DNA of 64,000 nt from Eledone cirrhosa (lineage: Eukaryota): assembly GCA_964016885.1 (NCBI GenBank), contig OZ024743.1:146568001-146632000 (forward strand). The letters run 5' to 3'. Below, one piece after another: positions 981 through 60,800 of this stretch; positions within the stretch are counted from its first letter, which is position 1; each line of letters starts with the position of its first letter. Position numbers and translations under genes: made by a program. The notes beneath the pieces are model-generated. The model worked only from the letters and a program-made list of their open reading frames with translations. It was not told the DNA's origin and made no database searches.

Positions 981-1106
981 CATGCGTGTGTGTGTGTGTG
1001 TGTATTTGTGTATGTAAGTATAGTTTTATGCCTTATACTATATATTTCCCTCACTTTCTTCCACTCTCCATTTCTCTGCTTCTCTCTCTCTCTCTCTATA
1101 TATATA

Positions 1107-1892
1107 TACAAGTTAATATAAATTAATATATTTGATAAACACAAATACCAACATATCCATGTTTGTATTGTAAATGACTAAGTTAGCTAGATTGAAAAAT
1201 ACTAATTATAATAATACAGTTTGCCTGTCTCGATTTATCAAATATATTAATTTATATTAACTTGTATTACACGGCTCAGAAATACTTCTTTCTTTGAGCT
1301 ATTTCATTGTAAAGGACTACCTGAGATTTGAACTCATTATTAATAGTTTCACTGCTCCTTACGTAGAGCTAAATTTAACCCCATATAAACGGCTGTTATT
1401 TCAAGCAGTACGAGTATGGGGCAGCTAGACACTGGATAACCGTATGTGAAAAACCATGTGCGTTAAACAGTCTATTTAAATATTTTGAAGTGAAACATAC
1501 CAATTTTTCTGGTGCTTGCTGAGGAGATAGAAATGCGGTATTCCTTCACTTTCATTTTTCGAAACTTATTTGGATTTTAAGGTTTAAACCAGTCTACGGA
1601 ACAGGTTTGATTCTGAAATTTAAATTTGTCCAAGCACCACGGCCATTTGCCAATATACTTTGTTTTTATTGATTTATTATTTTAAATCGAGACAGGCAAA
1701 CTGTATTATTATAATTAGTATTTTTCAATCTAGCTAACTTAGTCATTTACAATACAAACATGGATATGTTGGTATTTGTGTTTATCAAATATATTAATTT
1801 ATATTAACTTGTATTACACGGCTCAGAAATACTTCTTTCTTTGAGCTATTTCATTGTAAAGGACTACCTGAGATTTGAACTCATTATTAATA

Positions 1893-1894
<2 letters not shown>
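1107..1894 (+). mobile_element. Non-coding hammerhead-containing retroelement (retrozyme/Penelope-like), 547-nt unit, partial tandem with 5' inversion
   Basis: 1234-1347 equals 1781-1894 (direct repeat, period 547). 1107-1237 is the reverse complement of 1683-1813. Both ends abut TA repeats. Internal hammerhead at 1510-1639. Confidence 0.8.
1510..1639 (+). ncRNA. Type I hammerhead ribozyme
   Basis: Stem I TGGTGCTTG/CAAGCACCA (9 bp), core CTGAGGA 1519-1525, stem II GA..GAAATG/CATTTT.TC, GAAAC 1561-1565, long stem III, GTC cleavage triplet 1628-1630. Confidence 0.88.
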
Positions 1895-1948
<54 letters not shown>

Positions 1949-11562: not shown

Positions 11563-14500
11563 TTATCATCATCATCATTATCATCACCGTTTTACATCTG
11601 TTCTTCCACGCTAGCATGGGTTAGACGGGTTGTCCTGTTGCGGGCAGTGTCTGGTCGGCTGACCTTGTCTTGCTCATACAGGAACTGATTTTGGCTTGAT
11701 TTCTACAGCTGGATGCCCCTCCTAACACCAACCTCATTTACAGTGAGTGCTAGGTGCTTTTTTTCCGTGGCGCCTACACGTCCACTTTACAGTGTGGGCT
11801 GGGTGCTTTTTTGCGATGGCACCTCCACGACCACTTTGCAGTGGGAGGGTGTGGGGGCATATTGTCTATATGCTTCAGCTTTGGCTTGTACCCATGGGAG
11901 GTCGGGTACTTTGTATTACTGTGTGGTGCCAGAGGTCACGGTCGTGTGTCATCGCCTTTGAGAGGTGTAAGGTCGGCTTTTATCACCTCATCCCAGGTCT
12001 TCTTGGGTTTCCCCACTCCGTGGTTTCCATCGACTTCTAGTGCTCTGCACCTTTTTATGCAGTTGTCATCCTTCATACGCATCACATGTCCATACTAATG
12101 CAACCGCCTCTCCTGCACAAAGCGTTTGATTCCTCTTATGCGCAGTCTCTCTCTCAACTCGTTTATGCTTTGCCGTTCGCATATATTACTATTACATATC
12201 CATCTGAGCATGCAGGCTTCGTTTCTTTCTAATCTATGCAAGTCTACCACATTCAGCGTCCAGGTTTCACTACCATGTAACATTGCTGTTCGGATACACG
12301 CATCATACAGTCTGCCTTTCATTTTGAGGGAAAAGCCTTTTGCAACTAGCAGTACTTGTTTCCTGTGGCTGTTTGCTGCTTGCTGTCCCAGTACAGCTGC
12401 TACATGTGAAGCCTACATTCTTAATTAAGCTTCCTGAGATCCCGCTACATCTCTTGTGTACCCAGTGTTTGCATTTGGGGCAGAGAATGGAGATCCTACC
12501 TACACCTTTCCTATATACTGAGCAAGGCCATTTCCCTGAGGGGATCTGGGTTCTGTTTTCTCGTCTACTTACAAGGGCCTTAATCTTTGTCATGTTGACT
12601 TTGAGACCATTTCTTTCTAGTCCCTGCTTCCAAGATTGGAATTTCTTCTATAGTTCTACCATAGATTCAGCTATAAGTGTGAGGTCATCTGCATACAGGA
12701 GTTCCCATGGGCACCCGGTCTTAAACTCCTCCGTTATTGCCTGCAGGACTATGATGAACAGGAGAGGGCTAAGAACAGAGCCCTGGTGGACACCAACCTT
12801 TATGCTAAATTCCTCGCTATATTCATTGCTAATCCTAACTTTGCTGACTGCTCCCCTATACATGGCTTGTACAGCTTTCGCAAGCCATTCATCTACTCCT
12901 AGTTTTCTAAGAGCCCACCAGATTATAGCATGTGGAACTCTGTCAAAGGCTTTCTCGAGATCGACGAATGCCAGGTAGAGTGGCTTACTTTTAGCTAGGT
13001 ACTTTTCCTGCAACTGCCTCACAAGGAAGAGGACATCAGTGGTACCTCTTCCTGGTACAAACCCAAATTGCATCTCATCTAGTTTCACCCGGTCCCTAAT
13101 CAACTGTGCTATAACTCTTTCCGTTACTTTCATGACCTGGTCCATCAGCTTTATACCTCTATAGTTTCCTCTATCTAGTGCATCACCTTTACCTTTATAG
13201 CAGTTGACAATGATGCTACTGCACCAATCCTTTGGTATGACACCTTCTAGTATTACCTGGTTAACAATACGTGTGGTTATCGTGTGATCCACCGACCCAG
13301 ATGCCTTCAGCATCTCGGCAACTATACCTGATGGACCGGTTGCCTTCCCCATCTTCATATCTTTGATTGCCTTACTTACTACACTGCTGCTGACTTGTAC
13401 TGTTGGCCCCTCTATAGGGTCTACTTGGGGTAGGGTCTCTTCTTCCCATGCTTGAATTTTTTATCCTCTGCTTCCCTCCTAGCTAAGTATACTTGTCGCC
13501 TAGCTTTCCTCCTAGTCTCTATGTAATGTACCCTGCTTCTCCCGTTCTTCCATTCTTTCCATGCTTGTCTCATGGCCTTAACTGCCTCATCTACCTTATT
13601 GTTCCACCACCAAGTCACTCTCCTCCTGCCTGTGGTCTTACTCCAGCCACAGATCTCATCCGTTGCCTCTAGTAAGTTATTTTTTAGGAATTCCCAGTGC
13701 TCTTCTACATTGAATGTCTCTATCTGTTGTTCTTTACTGTCGTAGGCGTTGAGTAAAGTGTTTACCTACGTGTCCGTTAAAATCTCCTGCAATGATTAGG
13801 AAGTCATTGTAGTTTGTTAGAGCAATAGTGTGCATTAGGGACTCGTAAAACCTATCCTTAATTTCGTCTGGCAACCCTGATTTGGGTGCGTAAGCTGATA
13901 TTATTGTGGTAATTACCACAATAATAATTTTATTCAGAACTAGTCAGTGTTTAATGATTCTTGCATTCACCCTGTTCCCTGAGATTACTTTATCTACCCA
14001 CTTGTCAGCTTGTAGAATACTTACACCACCCATCCCATCGTCATTTGCCACCCAGAAAAATTTGTAGCACTGACTTTTTCCTACAAGGACTTTAGCAGAC
14101 TCTCCTCTCCATCTAGTCTCTTGCACACAGCATACACCAATTTCCTTTCGCTCTAGCATCTCTGCAATTTCTCCTGCTCTTCCTTTCATTGTGCTTACAT
14201 TGATGGTACCAACTCGGAGTTTTGGGCATTTGTCAACATTCATGGGGAAAAGTCGATTTTTGCAGGGGTGTGCTTCCTGTCTCTGAATTGAAGCTTCACA
14301 TGGGTGCTTGGTAGCTTGCGGATTCATATTCATTTTCATTTATTAATTCAGGGTTGCTCCATTTATTCTCAGCTCATCCAAACATAACGGTAGGAAAATT
14401 CAGGGCTAGAAGAACAGTAGTGGTGGTAATAATGGCAGGGTGTATTGGGGCTGGGACGGCTGGGGAGAGAGGTAGGTAGTAGTAGAAATGGTAGGGTTTG

Positions 14501-18060: not shown

Positions 18061-18569
18061 ATATGTTAACACCAGCTTACCATAGAGTTGAAGTTTATTT
18101 CTTTAAGTTTATTGACCTGTATTGCAGTGTATCAGTTAATTGAATAGTACTACTGTAATGTGGTTGCCGTTAGAATGGGCATCAAGCTGTAGAAACTAAG
18201 CCAAAAAGCACAGTTGACAGCAAAACAGGGTCATCTGACCTGATTAGTCTCATAATGTGATATCACATCTAACCTTCAGTTATCAATGCAGCTATCACAA
18301 AGGACAGCTACAACCACTTCAAGCAAATGATCATTTGTATATAGTGTGAGCTTGGCTGGTTATATTTAATTGATGGTAGCACTAAGACACTGTTTAATTA
18401 TAATATATGTGTATATGAAAACATATAACACGTTTATATACAATGAATATATGGGTAGCCTCACTGCCGAAGAAAAATATTTTTTTGTAGCCTAACGAGA
18501 TGAAAAAAAACATTTTTTTCCCCATTTTCCTCAACGAATATATCACTGAGTTGCCAGTATGTTCTGAGA

Positions 18570-18618
18570 ATGTCAGACAGTGCTGTTTCAAGATTTGTTA
18601 ATCTTTCATCAGTGACAC
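18570..18618 (-). ncRNA. Type I hammerhead ribozyme
   Basis: Minus strand reads GTGTCA CTGATGA AAGATT AACA AATCTT GAAA CAG CA CTG TC TGACAT. Core is intact, GUC triplet present, all three stems pair. Confidence 0.88.
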
Positions 18619-19204
18619 TCATTCAAAATGTACTGGCATGAAATAGACTATAGTCTTTATAGAATCTTGTATGATGATCACTTGCTGGAGATGCTCATTT
18701 GCATATAGCTTAATGGTCATTTGGATATTGCTTATCGCTAATTAAATATAAGCAACCAAGCTCACACTTCAGCAGTGAGGCTACCTATATGTTTATTGTA
18801 TATAAATGCATTATATATGTATTCATATACAGCTCTATTATGCTTAAATGGTGTCTTCGAGCTACTGCCAATTATACATATTTATATATATATGTAAAAG
18901 TTCTATTTAAAATTGTTGGGATACAACAAGCAAATATTTTTATAACTGATATAAAGCACTCAACAAATATTTGGAGTAAAAATACGATATTAACAAATGG
19001 AAACTATCTTTATAAAACCATATTTATTTCATTATACATATTTCAAGACACCAAGTTAAAAGGGTATGTCACTATTACTTTATAAAACTAATCTATATTA
19101 TATTTTATCTGATGAAAGCACACCATAATTTAACTTGGCGTCCTTGAAATATGTATAATGAAATAAATATGGTTTTATAAATATAGTTTCCATTTGTTAA
19201 TATC

Positions 19205-19281
<77 letters not shown>

Positions 19282-19282
19282 T

Positions 19283-19425
<143 letters not shown>

Positions 19426-19505
19426 TTATTTTACGTCTTTCATATATATATATGAAAGACGTAAAATAAGAAAATTATAAAAATTAACTTACTTACTAAA
19501 ATTTC

Positions 19506-19589
19506 ACTCCAACTAATTAGTTTCTGAAAGGGAATAAACATGGTTTCCGAATGGAACAACATGGAGAATACCTTTCGTCATCAGGAAGT
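19506..19589 (-). ncRNA. Type I hammerhead ribozyme with palindromic stem III
   Basis: Minus strand reads ACTTC CTGATGA cGAAAGG...CCTTTCa GAAACTAATTAGTT GGAGT. 12-nt palindrome AACTAATTAGTT, GUU triplet, mismatch at the base of stem II. Confidence 0.75.
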
Positions 19590-20032
19590 CAATTCTCAGC
19601 TAAGTTCCCAGGCGATGCGTGGACACAGGGAACTTATACAAAAATAATTCAGAGGATGGAAAAAAGCAAGCGAGGACTAAATTCCAAGACATTGAAAAAA
19701 TCACTGCCTACTTGGTCGGTGGCAAATTCAAAAGAATCAATCACGTGACATCGAGGTTAATCAGTGAGGAGTGGGGTGTTAAGAAGACAGTAGCCGAACT
19801 ATTACTATGAACTATAGTAGCAGTTTTTGCAAATTTTTGCTCAACAAAATAATTTGGAGTTAATTATAAAGAATTAGTATATCTACCAACATATATATAC
19901 AGATGCATACCTATGCTAGCAAATATATAGGTTTTGTCTTAGTAACTCTGTGGTTCAATGCAAGGGGATGCAGAACAATTATATGAAAGACGTAAAATAA
20001 GAAAATTATAAAAATTAACTTACTCAAATTTC

Positions 20033-20116
20033 ACTCCAACTAATTAGTTTGTGAAAGGGAATAAACATGGTTTCCGAATGGAACAACATGGAGAATACCT
20101 TTCGTCATCAGGAAGT
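20033..20116 (-). ncRNA. Second tandem hammerhead copy with G12C core substitution
   Basis: Matches 19506-19589 except that GAAA reads CAAA. Confidence 0.65.
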
Positions 20117-20563
20117 CAATTCTCAGCTAAGTTCCCAGGAGATGCGTGGACACAGGGAACTTATACAAAAATAATTCAGTGGATGGAAAAAAGCAAGCGA
20201 GGACTAAATTCCAAGACATTGAAAAAATCACTGCCTACTTGGTCGGTGGCAAATTCAAAAGAATCAATCACGTGACATCGAGGTTAATCAGTGAGGAGTG
20301 GGGTGTTAAGAAGACAGTAGCCGAACTATTATTATGAAGGGAGTGAAATTTTAGTAATTAAGTTAATTTTTATAATTTTCTTATTTTACGTCTTTCATAT
20401 AATTGTTCTGCATCCCCTTGCATTGAACCACAGAGTTACTAAGACAAAACCTATATATTTGCTAGCATAGGTATGCATCTGTATATATATGTTGGTAGAT
20501 ATACTAATTCTTTATAATTATCTCCAAATTATTTTGTTGAGCAAAAATTTGCAAAAACTGCTA

Positions 20564-25757: not shown

Positions 25758-25790
25758 TCTCTTTTCCTCTTTTAACTTTTCAGCACCAAC

Positions 25791-28700
25791 ATGGCCAATA
25801 TAAGAGTTGGATGTGTGAACGTACGCGGCCTGGGGATGCCCTGGAAACAGGGCAAACTCTTAAACGACCTCAGGTCGCACAGTTTGGATGTGGTAGCCAT
25901 TTGCGAGTCCAGGATCCACGGCGAGCGACAGCTGGCCCCCATCTTCGATGACTTTGAGATCTACGCATCTCTCTGTCAACCGGGGGGTGGGGGCGGAGTT
26001 GCCGTTTTGCTGCGGAAACACCTGGGCCTCGTAACACAGACGGTACATCTGGACCCGGAGGGTCGACTGGTGGTCCTAGACGTTGACGGTAGTGAAGGTG
26101 GAGCGTTCAGGCTGGTGGCCGCATATGCCCCATCCGGGACACCGCGGCCAGACTTCTTCAAACGTCTAGAGACTTTTCTGGGAACGTCCCGCTCCTTGCT
26201 TTTAGTGGGGGACTGGAATGGAATCCTAGATGCACGTTGGGACTATGTGGGAGCATGTCTCGATAAAGGGGGGTGTAACAGCCTCAAACAGTTAATCGAC
26301 CGATTTGACCTGGCCGATAGATATCGACTAGATTTTCCGACTGCGCCACTGTGGACGTGGAGTAATCGTAGCGGAACATCTAGATCGTACCTAGATAGGG
26401 TTCTAGTTAGAAATAAGGATAGGGACATGTTAAGCTGTCCACAAATGTTCATGGTTGCCTATTCGGATCACAAACTAGTGACCTGCATGGCCAACCTTGA
26501 TAGAACCCATAGACAAGGACCCGGCTACTGGAAGCTGAACTTGTCGTTACCGACAAGCAAAGCCTACAGTAGACGGATTAGCACTTTAGTTAAACAGCAC
26601 TTGACAGGGGCCATTGTCAACAACAGATGGTGGTACTCTCTCAAGAGGGCAGTTAGATTAGACTCGATAGTTTTTAGTAAAGAATTAGCGTTAGATAGAA
26701 ATAGAACCGAGAAGGAACTGGTAGATAAAGTAGAAGAGGCTATTAGAAGTGGCAACGTAGCCAGCGTGCTAGCAACGAGAACGGCCTTGGACCAGTTCTT
26801 CGACGCAAAGCACGAGGGCTGCGTTGTCAGAAGCAAAATACGTGCTCTGGGAAACGAGGGAGCCAAAGCTGTTAGCTGGGCCCGAGTGACGGAGGCAAAA
26901 AGTGGCAACAAGTCCACGATTCGGTCTTTGAAGGACCAAAACGGACGCGTGATACGTGAGCCGAAGCAGATGTGTGCGGCTTTTCAGCGGCACTTTGCTC
27001 GGCTGTTCGGGGGGAGCGGCGCGCCGGGAGAGGCTATGGATTTCGGTCCATACCTCGACGGCCTACCGCGACTCTCGGACAGCGAGGCGAAGTTCTGCGA
27101 AAAGCCGATTTCAGCCACTGAGATAGGGGACGCGCTGAGCCAATGCGGCAAACGCAAATCTCCAGGTCTCGACGGTCTACCCTACGAATTTTACGTAGCA
27201 ATGCCGGACTTATTCTCCGGTCTCCTGGAAGCGGTCTACTGCAACTGGCAACAGAACGGGAGAATTCCCAGTTCTGTAACCGGGGGCGTGGTCACACTAA
27301 TCAGGAAGGACGAGAATAAGGGGGATGACATAGGCAACTTCCGGCCCATAACTCTGCTAAACACAGAGTTACAGATTTTGGCCAAGGTGTTGGCAAAGAG
27401 GCTGGCGCTTGTCGTCGAGAACCTGGTGGGAGAAGCGCAGACATGCGCGATCCCGACCAGGTCCATACACGACAACCTCCACCTCATGCGATATATCATA
27501 GAGAGGGTAGGGTGTAAACCCGGCTTCGGTGGGGCCCTGATCAACTTGGATCAGTCTAAGGCTTTCGATAGGGTTGACCATCGTTACCTGGATGCGGTGC
27601 TCGAGGCGGCAGGCTTCGGACCCGTGTTCAGAGGCTGGATTGCTGCAATGCACAACAGCAACATCTGCTCAAGGGTCAAGGTGAACGGTTACCTCTCGGA
27701 GCCGTTCCATATTACGCGATCCATTCGACAGGGATGCCCTCTCTCCTCCCTTCTGTACGTACTGACTCTCGAGCCACTACTGCGGAAGCTGGAGCTATTG
27801 CAGGGCATCCCTCTGGAACCGGGACTGCGGAAAGCGGCGTCGGCCTACGCCGACGACGTGACAGTAATGGTGTCGAGCGCCTCGCAAATCGAGAAAGTCG
27901 GCACCTTACTAAAGGAATACGAAAGTCTCACAGGAGCGAAGCTGAACCGGGACAAGTCCATCGGTTTGCAACTCGGATCGTGGAGAGGCAAACCGATGCC
28001 TTCCGATGGCGTCGTCGGACGCTGGACGGAAGGACCGGTAAAGCTGCTCGGGGTCTGGTTTGGTCCGGACCTCCAGGTGGAGAAGAACTGGAACGAAGTG
28101 ACGGCCAAGGTGTTTGCACTCACCCAGAAGTGGGCCGAGTGCAAACTATCCTTGAAAGGTCGAGCGGAGGTGGCGAACACTTTTATAGCGTCCGCCATCT
28201 ACTACCGCTTGACCGTCGTGCCTTGTCCAGCCAAAACGCTCGCCAAAATGGAGCGCGCCCTCTTCCGATTCCTTTGGAAGAGGCGGGCTCCTTTGGTAAG
28301 AAGATCCATCTGCTGCCAACACCCTTCTAACGGAGGGCTGGGGATGCCGTGGTTGACGATGCGCAAACACGCGCTCAGGCTGCGGCATCTCTACGTATTC
28401 CTCACCGGACAACCGGTGTGGGCCCCGTTCGTGAGGCGAGCCTTCCCACGACTCGTCTCACTGACCGAGCTGCAGTCCTGGGTCAAGCAGAGACCGAGGA
28501 AAATGGGCGACTGGCACATCGAATGTGCTCAGGCGCTCACAGCCCTCTGGCAGGCGGACCCGGCGATCAGTGGAGACTCCACTTCGTCATTCTATAGAGG
28601 GTTGGTCCGCAGCAAGTGCGACGACGCGCTCGGTGAAACTCTGGGCGTGGAGGAAGATGAACTGGCCAGTCTGTTCGGTAGGACCTTCCGCCCGGGACCG

Positions 28701-29228
28701 ATGGATAGCTTCCAAAAGTCCCTGGCCTGGCAGTGCTACCGAGGAGCTCTACCAGTTCGAGACAAGCTCTACAGACATGGGAGCCCGGGCAGGGACCCTG
28801 CAAAAAAGATCTGTCCGAGGTGCGTGCGAGACGAAGAAACCGTCGCGCACGCATTCATACACTGCCCGGGCGTCACTGACCTGTGGGGATATGTAGAACG
28901 ACTATTGTCGCGGGTGGGACCAATCCAGTTGACCACCGAGACCATTGTCATGATCAAACCGCCACCCTCCTTCAAAAACGAAGGAGAGGCGGTTTTCCTT
29001 TGTGTGATAGCTATGGCGAAAGAGGTTGTATGGTGGACAAGGTTGAAAGGGCTGAGGTCAGACACCTTTCTCTCCGGCCAACAACTGATTCTTTTTTTCA
29101 AATACCACTTTGGAAGAAGAATCAGGATGGAGAGAGAGGTGCTGTACCCCAGCAAGTTTTATGAAAGGTGGGTGAAAGTGGCGAGAATGGCCCGAGTGAA
29201 TGGGCCTTCTCTCTATATCAGCCTGTAG
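25791..29228 (+). CDS. ORF2 polyprotein: AP endonuclease + reverse transcriptase + CCHC zinc finger (Tx1/L1-like)
   Basis: 1145 aa uninterrupted. Motifs CVNVRG, ICES, VGDWN, SYLDRV, SDHK; PGLDGLPYEFY, NFRPITLLN, LDQSKAFDRVDH, RQGCPLS, YADD; CPRC..ETVAHAFIHC. Confidence 0.96.
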   Translation: MANIRVGCVNVRGLGMPWKQGKLLNDLRSHSLDVVAICESRIHGERQLAPIFDDFEIYASLCQPGGGGGVAVLLRKHLGLVTQTVHLDPEGRLVVLDVDGSEGGAFRLVAAYAPSGTPRPDFFKRLETFLGTSRSLLLVGDWNGILDARWDYVGACLDKGGCNSLKQLIDRFDLADRYRLDFPTAPLWTWSNRSGTSRSYLDRVLVRNKDRDMLSCPQMFMVAYSDHKLVTCMANLDRTHRQGPGYWKLNLSLPTSKAYSRRISTLVKQHLTGAIVNNRWWYSLKRAVRLDSIVFSKELALDRNRTEKELVDKVEEAIRSGNVASVLATRTALDQFFDAKHEGCVVRSKIRALGNEGAKAVSWARVTEAKSGNKSTIRSLKDQNGRVIREPKQMCAAFQRHFARLFGGSGAPGEAMDFGPYLDGLPRLSDSEAKFCEKPISATEIGDALSQCGKRKSPGLDGLPYEFYVAMPDLFSGLLEAVYCNWQQNGRIPSSVTGGVVTLIRKDENKGDDIGNFRPITLLNTELQILAKVLAKRLALVVENLVGEAQTCAIPTRSIHDNLHLMRYIIERVGCKPGFGGALINLDQSKAFDRVDHRYLDAVLEAAGFGPVFRGWIAAMHNSNICSRVKVNGYLSEPFHITRSIRQGCPLSSLLYVLTLEPLLRKLELLQGIPLEPGLRKAASAYADDVTVMVSSASQIEKVGTLLKEYESLTGAKLNRDKSIGLQLGSWRGKPMPSDGVVGRWTEGPVKLLGVWFGPDLQVEKNWNEVTAKVFALTQKWAECKLSLKGRAEVANTFIASAIYYRLTVVPCPAKTLAKMERALFRFLWKRRAPLVRRSICCQHPSNGGLGMPWLTMRKHALRLRHLYVFLTGQPVWAPFVRRAFPRLVSLTELQSWVKQRPRKMGDWHIECAQALTALWQADPAISGDSTSSFYRGLVRSKCDDALGETLGVEEDELASLFGRTFRPGPMDSFQKSLAWQCYRGALPVRDKLYRHGSPGRDPAKKICPRCVRDEETVAHAFIHCPGVTDLWGYVERLLSRVGPIQLTTETIVMIKPPPSFKNEGEAVFLCVIAMAKEVVWWTRLKGLRSDTFLSGQQLILFFKYHFGRRIRMEREVLYPSKFYERWVKVARMARVNGPSLYISL

Positions 29229-32205: not shown

Positions 32206-33312
32206 TCATCACCATTTTACATCCACTTTGCCCTGCTTGCAAGGGTGGGATGGGTCCTATTCAGCACAGCATCTCTCCACTTGTCACGGTCCTTCGTCAT
32301 ATCCTCGGTGAGTTTCAGTGATCTGAGGTCTGCTCTCACCACCTCCACCCATGTTTTTCGTGGTCTACCTCTACTGCGTCTTCCTTCTACTGGCATTTCT
32401 TGGCACTTCTTTAGCCAGCGGTCACCCTCCATGCACATCACATATCCATACCATCTCATTCAGTCTTCTCTCCTGCACACCACAACTTATCCCTTTTATA
32501 CCCAGTTCTTCTCTCAACTCATCTATGCTTGGTCGTTCACGTACATTGACATTGCACATCCAACAGAGCATTCTTGCTTTATTTCTCTCCAGCCATCGCA
32601 TATCCTCTGCAGTTGCCGCCCATGTCTCACTACCATGCAGCACCGCGCATCTCACACAGGTATCATATAACCGTCCTTTTGTATGCAGAAACCCTTCTTT
32701 GTCAACAGAGGAAGCAGCTTCCTAAACTTCTTCCAGCCCGTCCCTTATTCTAGATACTATGGCCTCGGAACACCCCCTCCCATGCTAATCTGATCACCTA
32801 GGTACCAGAAGCTATCAACCAATTCTATAGAACCCACCTGCATTGGAAAAATGTGTCATTCACTGCGATTACTACTGCCAACTTTCCCTGTACATCTACT
32901 GCATATGTAGATTTCCCTACCTGTTAGTTTGCCTGCTATCCCACTACATCTCTTGTGTACCCAAGATCTGCATTGCGTACATTTTATGAAATTTATGCCA
33001 GTTCCTTTCCTACATATCAAACATGGCCATTTCCCGGATGGAATCAGAGTATTGTCCTCTCTTCTACTAATCAACACTTTTGTTTTAGTTATGTTCACTC
33101 TCAGGCCTCTTGATTCCATCTGCTGTTTCCATAGCCAGAATTTATTCTCTAGCTCCTCTACTGATTCTGCTATAAGAACCAGATCGTCAGCATAGAGAAG
33201 TTCCCATGGACAGACAGTCTTAAACTCCTCTGTTATGGCTTGGAGGACTATAATGAACAAGAGCGGGCTGAGGACCGAACCATGATGTACTCCTACTTGT
33301 ATCTGGATATGT
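32206..33312 (-). mobile_element. 5'-truncated decayed RTE LINE (second subfamily, short 3' UTR)
   Basis: GVHHGSVLSPLLFIIVLQ, LLYADDLVL, LHGSETW, RSRGRPRKTW. Confidence 0.9.
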
Positions 33313-34415
33313 ACCCCTACTTGTATATATATATATATATATACAAGTCAGGTCACCAGTTGGTGCTACTGGTAACATGTATCCCAGTACAACCTGTCTC
33401 ATGGTCGGGTCGTTGGCGACTAAACTGGCAACCCCACCAAGGTTTCTTGGTGAGGAGGGTGACTTTGGACATGCTGCAGGACTAAAAACAAAACCTGTCA
33501 AAGGGCAAAGGAGCTCTTAAGAGTCAATGGCCATCCAAAATCACCGGGAGAGATGACCCCTTAGCCTTTGTCAAGGCAGAATTCTAGGAGAAGGAAAACT
33601 CTGATATAACACCTGCAACCCTGATGGTATCCAATGATGTTGACTTGTTCTTCTTTTTGGTAAATATCATCTTGGTTAAGAGAGTGGGACTGGCTTTGTG
33701 CAGTGCCTTTGCTCACTATAAAAGCTTCACAGCACAGGCGTTGCTTTATATCTGGAGATCTCTCTGCACTTGTCGTTACATGGTACCATGGGCCCAGCAC
33801 TATGTTTCAATAATTGTCACAAGTGTAGTGTTTGTACCAGAGTTTTCAAGTCGCTGGCTGGACTAAAAAGCCACACTCGTTCAGTGCATCGGTAGGGGTT
33901 CTCCTACATGGATATAAAGTAGTGGCCATACTCGAAAACGAGTTGGCAGCCACCATATATACAAGTATGGGTACATATCCAGATACAAGTAGGAGTACAT
34001 CAAGGTTCGGTCCTTGTTTTTCGCTAATTTCCAAAGCCGAAATACGTTTCTCACTAATTTATATTTGTATATATATATATATATATTGGCAACATGACCC
34101 TCCCAAAGTATAACAATATATATATATATATATACTATAAAGTATGTCCATAGAATCATTTGATAATATATACACCATTTCCTCTCCCAATTAGCATAAT
34201 TAACCACACAAAAAATCAATTAGACCAGGCTATAAGATTAAAAGGCACCTATGAAAAAATAGTAAATAAATAAATGATAGCAGCCTCTTCGCGGCCAACC
34301 ACCATAGAGTTTCTACCCAACATTTCAACATCACGTGGAAATTGATTAAATATACGGTCAACCATACACAATTAGGTATAAAATTAAAGTTAGAAATGCT
34401 TATATACATACTAGG

Positions 34416-57884: not shown

Positions 57885-60800
57885 ACAGTATGGATGACCT
57901 CAAGTTATATGGGAAAAAACATGAATGAGATAGATTCATTGGTCCAAACAGTAAGTATGGAATTTTAGATAGATAAATGTGCCAAACTTAAAATTGTGAG
58001 AGGAAAGAAGATCAGCTTAGAAGGTATTCAATTACCCAGCAATGAAGTTATTCATTCTTTGGAAGACAGAGAGGATTACAAGTACCTTGAAATACTTTGG
58101 AGTGACAAGGTACTTTGTAAGAAAATGAAGGTAAAAGTCACACAAGAATATTTCAGAAGAGTCAAGGTCATCCTGGGATTGCAGTTTAATGCTGGAAACA
58201 TGATAACAGCAATGAACTGTAGAGCTGGGTCTATAATAAGTGCTGGAATAATTGATTGGACTGTTGAAGAACATCATCATCATCATCATCATCATCATCG
58301 TTTAACATCTATCTTCCATACTAGCATGGGTTTAGATGGGAGTTGTCCCACTTGAGGCAAGATTGGTCGGGTGACCATGTCTCGCTCATATAGAACTGTT
58401 TCTGGCTGGTTTTCTACAGCTGGATGCCCTTCCTAACACAAACCACATTTACAGTGTGGACTGGGAGCTTTTTACCGTGGTACCTATATAGCCACATTAC
58501 AGCATGGACTGTGTTTTTTTGTCATGACACCTACATGACCTCATTAGTTTGGACTAGATGTTGTGGTACCAACATAATTTTATAGAGAAAGGGTGGTGTT
58601 GGCGGGAGTGGGAGGATGGAGTAGGGGTAGTGCGTTGGGGTGAATGTTTGGTTTGGAAGGAGCCCACTGACTAAAGGTTAACTTTGCACATAGGGAAGGC
58701 GGGTCTTCTGTATTACTCTGTGGCACCAAAGATCTCGATCCAGTGACATTGTCTTAGAGAGGTGCAAGTGTGCAAGGTCAGAATTTATCATGTCATCCCA
58801 GGTTTTTCTGGGTCTACCTACTCCGTAACTTCCATCAATTTTGATTGCCCTGCACTTTTTTATACAGCTGTCATCTTTCATGCACATCATGTGACCATAC
58901 CAACGGAGTTGCTGATTTTGTCACCCAGGTAACAGAAAGTGTCCACTATTTCTATTGAACCATCTGGGCAGTAGAGGGAGCTAGTATCCTGTGGGCACTT
59001 GCTACTTATTACACCTGAGCATCGGCCACATATAAAATCTACGTTCTTAGATAGCTTGCCTGTGATCCCACTACATCTTTTATGTACCCATAGTTTGCAT
59101 TTGGGGCATAGAATGGAATTTATACCTACTCCTTTCTTACATAATGAGCATGGCCATTTCCCAGAGGGCATCTGTGCCCTATTTTCCTTTCTACATACTA
59201 GAACTTTAGTCTTAGACAAGTTAACTTTAAGGCCTTTTGATTCTCGGCGATGCTTCAATGATTGGAATTTCTTCATTAGTTCAGCCATAGATTCAGCTAT
59301 GAGAGTTAGATAATCTGCATATAGAAGTTCCCATGGGCAGCCGGTCTTAAACTCCTCTGTTATAGCCTGAAGGGCAATAATAAACAGGAGGGGGCTAAGG
59401 ACAGCCTTGATGAACACCGACTTTTACGCTAAATTCTTCACTATATTCATTGTTAATTCTAACCTTGCTTTGCTGACTGTATCTTTATACATGGCTTGTA
59501 TAGCTCTCACAAGCCATTCATCTACTCCTAGCTTTCTAAGGGCCCACTAGATAATGGAGCGTGGGACTCTGTCAAAAGCTTTCTCCAAGTCAACTAAAGC
59601 TAAGTAGAGGGGTTTACTTTTAGCTAGGTACTTCTCTTGTAGTTGTCATACAAGGAAAAGAGCATCTGTGGTACTTTTACCTGACACAAACCCAAACTGC
59701 ATTTCATCTAGATCAATTCGATCTCTGATTAGTTGTGCTATAACTCATTCTGTCACCTTCATGACCTGGTCAACTAACTTAATGCCTCTATAGTTTCTCC
59801 TATCTAGAGCATCCCCTTTACCCTTGTAGCAGTTAACGATGATGCTGTTACACCAGTCCTTTGGTATGACCCCATTCTGTATTACTTGGTTTACTATCTG
59901 GTTGACCATAATATGTCCCATCATTCCAGATGCTTTCAACATCTCATCAACTATCTCCGAAGGCCCAGCCGCCTTGCCTGTCTTCATATATATTTGATTG
60001 CCTTACTTATTATACAACCACTAACTTGCACTGCTGGTCCCTCTGTATAGATCGGAAAACAAGAAAGAAGTTGAATATATATTAAGGCTTGCACGCCCAG
60101 GCTGATGTTGATCAACTCTATGAGAGAAGAGCAGAAGGTGCAAAAGGATGGATCAGTAGCGAGGAAATAGTTTCAGTTGAGAAAGTAAACTTGAGTGAGT
60201 ATCTTGGAAAATATCATGACCAGGTAATAAAGGAAGTCTTAAAGGAAAGGATCAATGATGGAAAGGGGGATTCAAAGAAAGCCAAAATAGCTACAGAACA
60301 GAAGGCCAGATTTGAAGCAAAATCATTGCACTGATCTTATGAAAAGGACGCAAGACATGCCAGAAAATATAAAGACACATGGACATGGTTACATAGAGGA
60401 TATCTGAAGAAGGAAACAGAGGGTCTGATTATGGCAGCTCAAGACCAGGTGATAAGGTCAATTGGATCAAAGTCAATGTGGATAAGGTGGTCACATCACC
60501 ATTTGTAGAATGTATGGAAAAGCGACTAGACAATTAATGATATAGTCACAGAATGCTCACAACTGGATCAGGATAAATATAAAAAAATGGAGGTATGATA
60601 AAGTGGCAGCAGTAATATATTGGTGACTATGGAAAAAGTTTGATTTTAATTATAGTGAAAAATAGTGTGACCACTTGGTTGCAAAAGAGATGAAAGTGTT
60701 GCAAAATGATAAAGTTAAAATTCTTTGGGATGTTACAATACAAACAGAAACAAGGTTGATCACAACAAACCAGATATAGTGTTGATAACCAAGAAAGAAA

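Follow-up and report, generated by a model that had tools for sequence, protein, structure and literature searches.

A non-coding hammerhead repeat of Eledone cirrhosa with two fixed ends in TA runs, likely inserted by Penelope machinery

A non-coding repeat that carries a hammerhead motif was found in the genome of Eledone cirrhosa, with two fixed ends located in TA runs. A Penelope-like enzyme probably inserts this repeat in trans, through twin priming. The copy studied here lies in a 64,000-nt stretch of contig OZ024743.1, which was analyzed as a whole and is referred to as the window. The element is a non-LTR retrozyme, most likely moved by Penelope machinery, because its insertions have the published Penelope signature of a tandem, an inverted 5′ arm, a tail, and two reverse transcriptase (RT) start sites. 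The element class and its link with Penelope are already known. Added here are a near-strict pairing of the ends, arms of one haplotype as the rule, and head-to-head chimeras between families.

Structure of the window copy and its hammerhead motif

The features are summarized in Table 1. Read from the fixed ends, the right arm of the window copy extends 661 nt back from 1894 and the left arm 132 nt back from 1814. A preliminary description of this DNA had noted a 114-bp direct repeat with a period of 547 nt, and the two segments (1234-1347 and 1781-1894) were 100% identical over 114 nt. The inverted 5′ segment, given there as 131 bp, was present with a measured length of 132 nt, and was 100% complementary to 1683-1814. 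No difference was detected over both repeats, against a within-insertion average of 2.1-2.3%. Thus, the window copy is young, in agreement with the recent insertion proposed earlier. TA repeats had been described at both ends; the right run comprises 26 units, but the left one only about 9 nt, following a CT run. The hairpin at about 1379-1421 was found as described. The 547-nt unit is non-coding, in line with the earlier remark that it has no ORF; its stop-free stretches reach at most 55 aa, and ORFs starting with ATG at most 27 aa. The GC content of the region was 29%, and the 661-nt arm folded with a z-score of −7.8 (equaled by 0 of 20 shuffles). The unit is also dissimilar to the family near 19.4 kb (family B), as stated previously, with a best local match of E 0.057. 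By analogy with PMC11167929, the 80-nt tail is taken as the interval between two RT start sites, and the hairpin at its start is a candidate recognition element.

Table 1 Locations and properties of the window copy, its subfamilies, and families B and C. Positions are those of the window unless a locus is given.
Feature	Location	Strand	Description
Inverted arm	1106..1237	-	132 nt; copy of 1683-1814; outward end is the short fixed end
Direct arm	1234..1894	+	661 nt (547-nt monomer plus 114 nt); outward end is the long fixed end
Microhomology	1234..1237		4 nt common to both arms at the head-to-head junction
Monomer	1234..1780	+	547 nt, non-coding; one period of the family unit
Tail	1815..1894	+	80 nt; bounded by the short end at 1814 (and 1267) and the long end at 1894 (and 1347)
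Tail-start hairpin	1819..1846	+	second copy at 1272-1299; kept in four of four subfamilies
Internal hairpin	1379..1421	+	counterpart with changes in other subfamilies
Type I hammerhead motif	1510..1639	+	predicted cut after C1630
Left TA run	1097..1105		target remnant
Right (TA)26 run	1895..1945		target remnant
Family B copy	19416..20563		2682 candidates; period of about 527-530 nt, with 117 nt between the ends
Family C	L103:258-739; L043:2391-2911		non-coding unit of about 310-320 nt; fixed ends about 44 nt apart
Subfamily A			unit 547 nt; tail 80 nt
Subfamily A′			unit 534 nt; tail 65 nt
Subfamily A2			unit 560 nt; tail 84 nt
Subfamily A3			unit 498 nt; tail 81 nt

Each repeat unit contains one type I hammerhead core with its stems. 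In the window copy, stem I (1510-1518/1631-1639) has 9 bp with pair probabilities of 0.78-1.0, the core occupies 1519-1525 and GAAA 1561-1564, and U16.1-C17 lies at 1629-1630. Stem III (1564-1629) is long and well supported. The motif had been described as well formed, with long stems II and III. Stem I, the core, GAAA, the cut triplet, and a long, stable stem III were borne out, but stem II (1526-1560) had been overstated; it is weak, reaches its length in the constrained fold only, and its G10.1-C11.1 pair has a probability of about 0. The active core costs 4.2-4.3 kcal/mol as calculated with ViennaRNA, whose model does not include the core contacts. The ribozyme fold had a z-score of −2.5 (1 of 200 shuffles was as good). 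Among the Rfam matches listed (150 of 160), there was no hammerhead, only microRNA matches driven by microsatellites. Tandem copies with at least two complete hammerheads occur in the family (L002, L100, and L166); the window copy has one.

A search of the 3.0-Gb genome with the unit gave 3077 candidates, and the 40 that were scored were 94-98% identical, which answers the question about related copies raised in the preliminary description. Exact matches in the genome numbered 65 for a 25-mer from the ribozyme and 1802 for a 21-mer where the tail begins, a sequence that related subfamilies share. The window copy is one member of a non-coding family whose relatives number in the hundreds to thousands. 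Subfamilies A, A′, A2, and A3 were mutually 70-81% identical. Loci L226-L265 contain further A-related subfamilies with 75-90% identity and other hammerhead variants; the superfamily extends beyond the four characterized subfamilies.

Across the four subfamilies, both sides were changed at six of the nine stem I pairs and at one of two stem II pairs. The covariation score was reached by 0 of 500 shuffles, and pairing was 91% at the true register compared to 18-48% in slid controls. The 14 rows of the alignment represent four lineages and are not independent, so that the changes correspond to about a dozen events rather than 35. Subfamily A2 carries a U3-A8 core swap, a variant reported in PMC4209133. 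In subfamily A3, stem III is short and a U4-to-A change in the core is fixed. As stem I shows compensatory changes and the core was swapped over 20-30% divergence, the alignment indicates that the hammerhead fold is under selection; self-cleavage itself is a prediction from folding.

Paired ends, template haplotypes, and chimeras

We surveyed the ends of 69 distinct A insertions, 29 from the best matches and 40 from exact-pattern or further matches. The first 30 loci were picked as the best full-length matches, and duplicates of overlapping loci and the segmental duplicate L025 were left out. The outward 3′ termini sit at unit position 34 or 114, corresponding to 1814 and 1894 in the window, and 96 of 108 fell at unit 30-38 or 110-116. 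Copies were thus not circularly permuted at random, a possibility for which the preliminary description had proposed a check; the ends are fixed at two sites 80 nt apart. TA-rich DNA adjoined 97 of the 101 canonical ends, that is, the ends within the class windows. A single canonical outward end was present in 26 of the 69 insertions and two canonical ends in 35, and all 35 of the latter combined one short and one long end. Tallied from the end tables, the same pairing was found in A′ (16/16), A3 (9/9), A2 (6/7), and family B (10/12). When the five families were pooled, 76 of 79 pairs were mixed, three were short with short (L044, L045, and L214), and none was long with long. The family includes partial tandems with an adjacent inverted, 5′-truncated arm. 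The junction between the arms varies and has microhomology; the ends stay fixed. Forty further loci, taken in genome order from the matches to the tail-start 21-mer, were all non-coding and short, and showed this pattern on visual inspection.

Diagnostic positions (31 sites) were compared within and between insertions. Monomers of one arm disagreed in 24 of 669 comparisons and opposite arms of one insertion in 28 of 528, and many of these residual differences are indel placements. Different loci disagreed in 32% of comparisons, against 4-5% within insertions. Overall divergence was 2.1% within an arm, 2.3% between opposite arms, and 4.1% between loci. In L166, four tandem monomers of one 2.2-kb arm share 4-7 variants nearly absent elsewhere. 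The low discordance between arms and the private variants of L166 indicate that both arms usually derive from one RNA or one source, and that a single monomer can be multiplied within one arm. A circle would explain the homogeneous arms and would also make up for the length lost through 5′ truncation; from the window copy by itself, no more than 661 nt could be obtained. Homogeneous tandems could also be explained by repeated template jumps, tandem source loci, or local expansion. Reverse transcription of a circular or multimeric RNA had been proposed earlier from permuted terminal redundancy. The one-haplotype tandems fit a circular or re-copied template, but random circular permutation of the copies was not found.

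Arm stops cluster past the predicted cut site in part of the families. In subfamily A, 9 of 97 stops fell at unit 409-415, a window chosen post hoc, 12-18 nt past the cut. Nine arms of family B stop 7-18 nt after its predicted cut, and five arms of A′ form a weak cluster. Such a hotspot was rejected as a general rule, since it is absent in A2 and A3. Stalling at the folded motif could account for the cluster in A, as could an end left by cutting.

Arms of unrelated families were found joined head-to-head. In L009 and L019, an A arm at its short site is joined to a B arm at its long site. A-short is joined to C-long in L026 and B-short to C-long in L043, both without a TA run at the junction. 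Thus, all four inter-family chimeras pair a short with a long end; this agreement would arise by chance in 1 of 16 cases and is only suggestive. Fold-back of one molecule is excluded for the chimeras, because their arms derive from unrelated families, and they can be explained by two priming events on two RNAs. At L046, where family B lies beside the coding family P1, a canonical end is lacking, and this locus was left out of the chimera count. The predicted hammerhead of family B is weak, with a 5-bp stem I, an unstable stem III, and a GUU triplet; one arm of the window B copy begins exactly at the predicted cut site, 20340. No canonical hammerhead core was seen in family C, which forms chimeras with both A and B. 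The preliminary description had concluded from two families that there is a general system. The shared architecture and joint insertions agree with this, but the system itself was already known.

Coding Penelope elements in the genome

A search for GIY-YIG gave 10597 candidates in the genome. Of six ORFs tested, all carried GIY-YIG and four also RVT_1 at E below 0.001. The abundant coding elements have an RT and, C-terminally, a GIY-YIG domain. Two coding families, P1 and P2, have two ends about 68 and 55 nt apart, respectively, followed by TA runs, and short and long ends were paired at C9:3560085-3560953 and L301. Autonomous RT and GIY-YIG Penelope elements of this genome therefore show the same two-ended pattern as the retrozymes.

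The 3′ regions of 37 coding loci, a small share of the 10597 candidates, gave no significant match to the unit. Similarity of the tail to P1 was marginal (uncorrected p of 0.02 and 0.07 in two of 15 comparisons). Among the coding elements sampled, none had the unit as its terminal repeat, so that the alternative of a terminal repeat of a catalogued Penelope element, raised in the preliminary description, was not borne out. Penelope protein matches lay near the unit at 11 of 145, 3 of 40, and 5 of 40 loci. Those inspected were separate insertions rather than copies adjoining a GIY-YIG/RT ORF: the partners at L074, L240, L250, and L286 had entered shared TA runs independently of the unit. The unit was also rejected as the terminal repeat of an autonomous element, as the RT and GIY-YIG ORF was not contiguous with the repeat at the loci inspected.

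The P2 family (L291-L315) is very young and carries a minimal hammerhead; in the 3′ region, the 40 copies that were scored were 99-100% identical. P2 is a good candidate for an active helper. At L103:938-1108, a stump insertion consists of the P1 terminal region only, with two arms and a short and a long end; thus, coding elements also leave mini copies.

Insertion mechanism and relation to known elements

In the proposed mechanism, a Penelope-like RT/GIY-YIG protein would cut both strands of a TA run, and the RNA would be copied inward from both nicks, from one start site each, the two sites flanking the tail. The two cDNAs would be joined head-to-head where they stop. The hammerhead may cut multimeric transcripts into monomers, which are likely then circularized, and a circular template would let an arm run past one unit, restoring the tandem eroded by 5′ truncation. 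We infer Penelope enzymes as the agents, the joining of cDNAs, and ribozyme cutting into likely circles; cleavage and the circular template are the least certain steps. The energy of the active core, disfavored by about 4 kcal/mol, and the U4-to-A change of A3 count against the ribozyme step, as do the cleavage of only one of nine Xenopus dimers (bioRxiv 10.64898/2026.07.22.740005) and the dispensability of the hammerhead for insertion in vitro (PMC11167929). It is possible, and we propose this tentatively, that ribozyme-made circles act together with a two-subunit Penelope enzyme, with asymmetry set by the enzyme and DNA and recognition by shape. Each subunit would start on one of the target strands in a fixed register of its own, which would give every insertion a short end and a long end. 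The asymmetry would be set by the enzyme-DNA complex and not by the RNA, because the pairing holds with arms from unrelated families. In this view, the families, which would have no sequence in common with one another or the helper, would be recognized by shape.

The source of the tandem could instead be linear. Twin priming would then act on uncut multimeric read-through RNA or proceed by template jumps, with a hammerhead that is weak, protein-assisted, or a vestigial passenger, and with no circles. No scar marks the predicted cut site where arms run across it, although the outcome would be the same for circles and uncut multimers; stem II is weak in the window copy, and tandem loci with at least two hammerheads exist as possible sources. 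Hammerhead mutants insert normally in the same in vitro work (PMC11167929), and the stops of A arms past the cut may be a stall as well as a cut end. We nevertheless consider a purely linear route unlikely, as the compensatory changes of stem I and the core swap imply selection on the ribozyme, and the private variants in the four L166 monomers need one monomer to be multiplied.

The inverted arm could also arise without a second priming, if one cDNA or antisense template folded back at a palindrome and primed itself; such self-priming has been proposed for rotifer Penelope elements, with junction palindromes as the argument (PMC3846280). Some junctions are indeed symmetric (L005, L017, L125, L159, L162, and L177), but most, including that of the window copy, are not. 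In addition, the inverted arm terminates at the second of the two fixed sites and not at a mirror position, and the chimeras have arms from different families. The end pairing, the one-haplotype arms, and the chimeras favor twin priming over fold-back, which we regard as very improbable. Tandem arrays and TA targets are also known for Helitron-type, satellite, or SINE elements, and RTs of L1 and RTE type are present in the window. A DNA-level element (Helitron/Helentron-type or satellite) or a LINE-moved SINE with a chance hammerhead-like motif would therefore share these traits, but would not be expected to have a pair of outward 3′ ends, 5′ truncation of variable extent, ribozyme covariation, and an end pattern identical to that of coding Penelope families; a poly(A) tail is absent. 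This origin is largely refuted by the ends, the covariation, and the Penelope pattern, and we assign it hardly any probability.

Penelope insertions comprise a tandem, an inverted arm, a one-sided tail, and a microsatellite bias (Craig 2021, PMC8557442), and the tandem and inverted-arm architecture is also described by Arkhipova 2013 (PMC3846280). Frangieh 2024 (PMC11167929) reported a tail bounded by two RT start sites and cutting and extension of both target strands, and predicted a dimer. Cervera and de la Pena 2020 (PMC7229834) defined non-LTR retrozymes, showed circles, and named Penelope elements as likely helpers; their 2014 paper (PMC4209133) proposed circles as templates for more-than-unit copying. 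Li, Clavereau, and Pollet 2026 (bioRxiv 10.64898/2026.07.22.740005) argued that retrozymes are non-autonomous Penelope derivatives.

The family shares several features with metazoan non-LTR retrozymes: its tandem units are non-coding and low in GC, each contains one type I hammerhead, the monomer falls within the reported 51-972 bp (PMC7229834; bioRxiv 10.64898/2026.07.22.740005), and Penelope-like elements, which were proposed there as movers, co-occur with it. Stem III is about 24 bp here, whereas theirs has 1-2 bp with a palindromic loop. In the Xenopus preprint, 24 of 57 families were linked to a coding terminal repeat, and we found no such link in our sample. The full Penelope signature is shown here at the insertion ends, which the accessible parts of those accounts leave unanalyzed. 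The family resembles Penelope-like elements in its partial tandem, inverted 5′-truncated arm, one-end tail, microsatellite or AT-rich targets, and tail bounded by two start sites (PMC11167929), but has no ORF. The tail is 65-117 nt in the retrozymes and 55-68 nt in P1 and P2, compared to 30-40 in published Penelope elements. That tail has been described as optional or often one-sided, whereas short and long ends were paired here in 76 of 79 cases, and inter-family chimeras are a further difference from the published architecture. A large helix III, the lack of a recognizable loop 1-loop 2 contact, and the U3-A8 variant of one subfamily are shared with type I hammerheads of fungal and protist Penelope elements (PMC4209133); this family differs in being an animal, non-autonomous one with predicted activity and, in A3, a short stem III. 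Chlamys MRC1 (PMC8557442) is similar as a non-coding Penelope derivative with multicopy head-to-tail insertions. Chlamys non-autonomous elements generally share 3′-end sequence with autonomous families, but none was found in our sample.

A literature search outside subscription journals, Repbase, and Dfam found no description of an octopus retrozyme or Penelope-hammerhead family, nor any account of strictly paired ends or of chimeras between families; for squid, only counts of hammerhead matches were given (PMC6962438). The link of retrozymes to a Penelope enzyme in animals has so far consisted of co-occurrence and terminal-repeat homology, and how Penelope elements build tandem, inverted, and tailed insertions was called undefined in PMC8557442. 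Short, numerous non-coding copies provide a countable footprint of paired starts, one haplotype, and rare chimeras. The end-pairing statistics, the chimeras, and an animal hammerhead with a long stem III are usable evidence on this open mechanism. With the 547-nt RNA and the young P2 family, the twin-priming and circle steps could be examined directly with the in vitro assay already published.

Other elements were observed in the window. An inverted-arm element at 18880-19205 has a minimal type I hammerhead and a palindromic loop at about 19104-19162, with related stretches in 40 of the collected sequences. In an inverted-repeat element at 18360-18880, the minus strand carries a motif resembling a hammerhead at about 18571-18617; no second copy of this element was found among the collected loci. 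A broken RTE-like LINE with an RVT_1 match lies on the minus strand at 12328-14339, and further fragments lie near 32856-33347 and 58887-59423. An uninterrupted 1150-aa frame at 25776-29228, which we take to be of L1/Tx1 type, has endonuclease, RT, and zf-RVT domains and is apparently intact.
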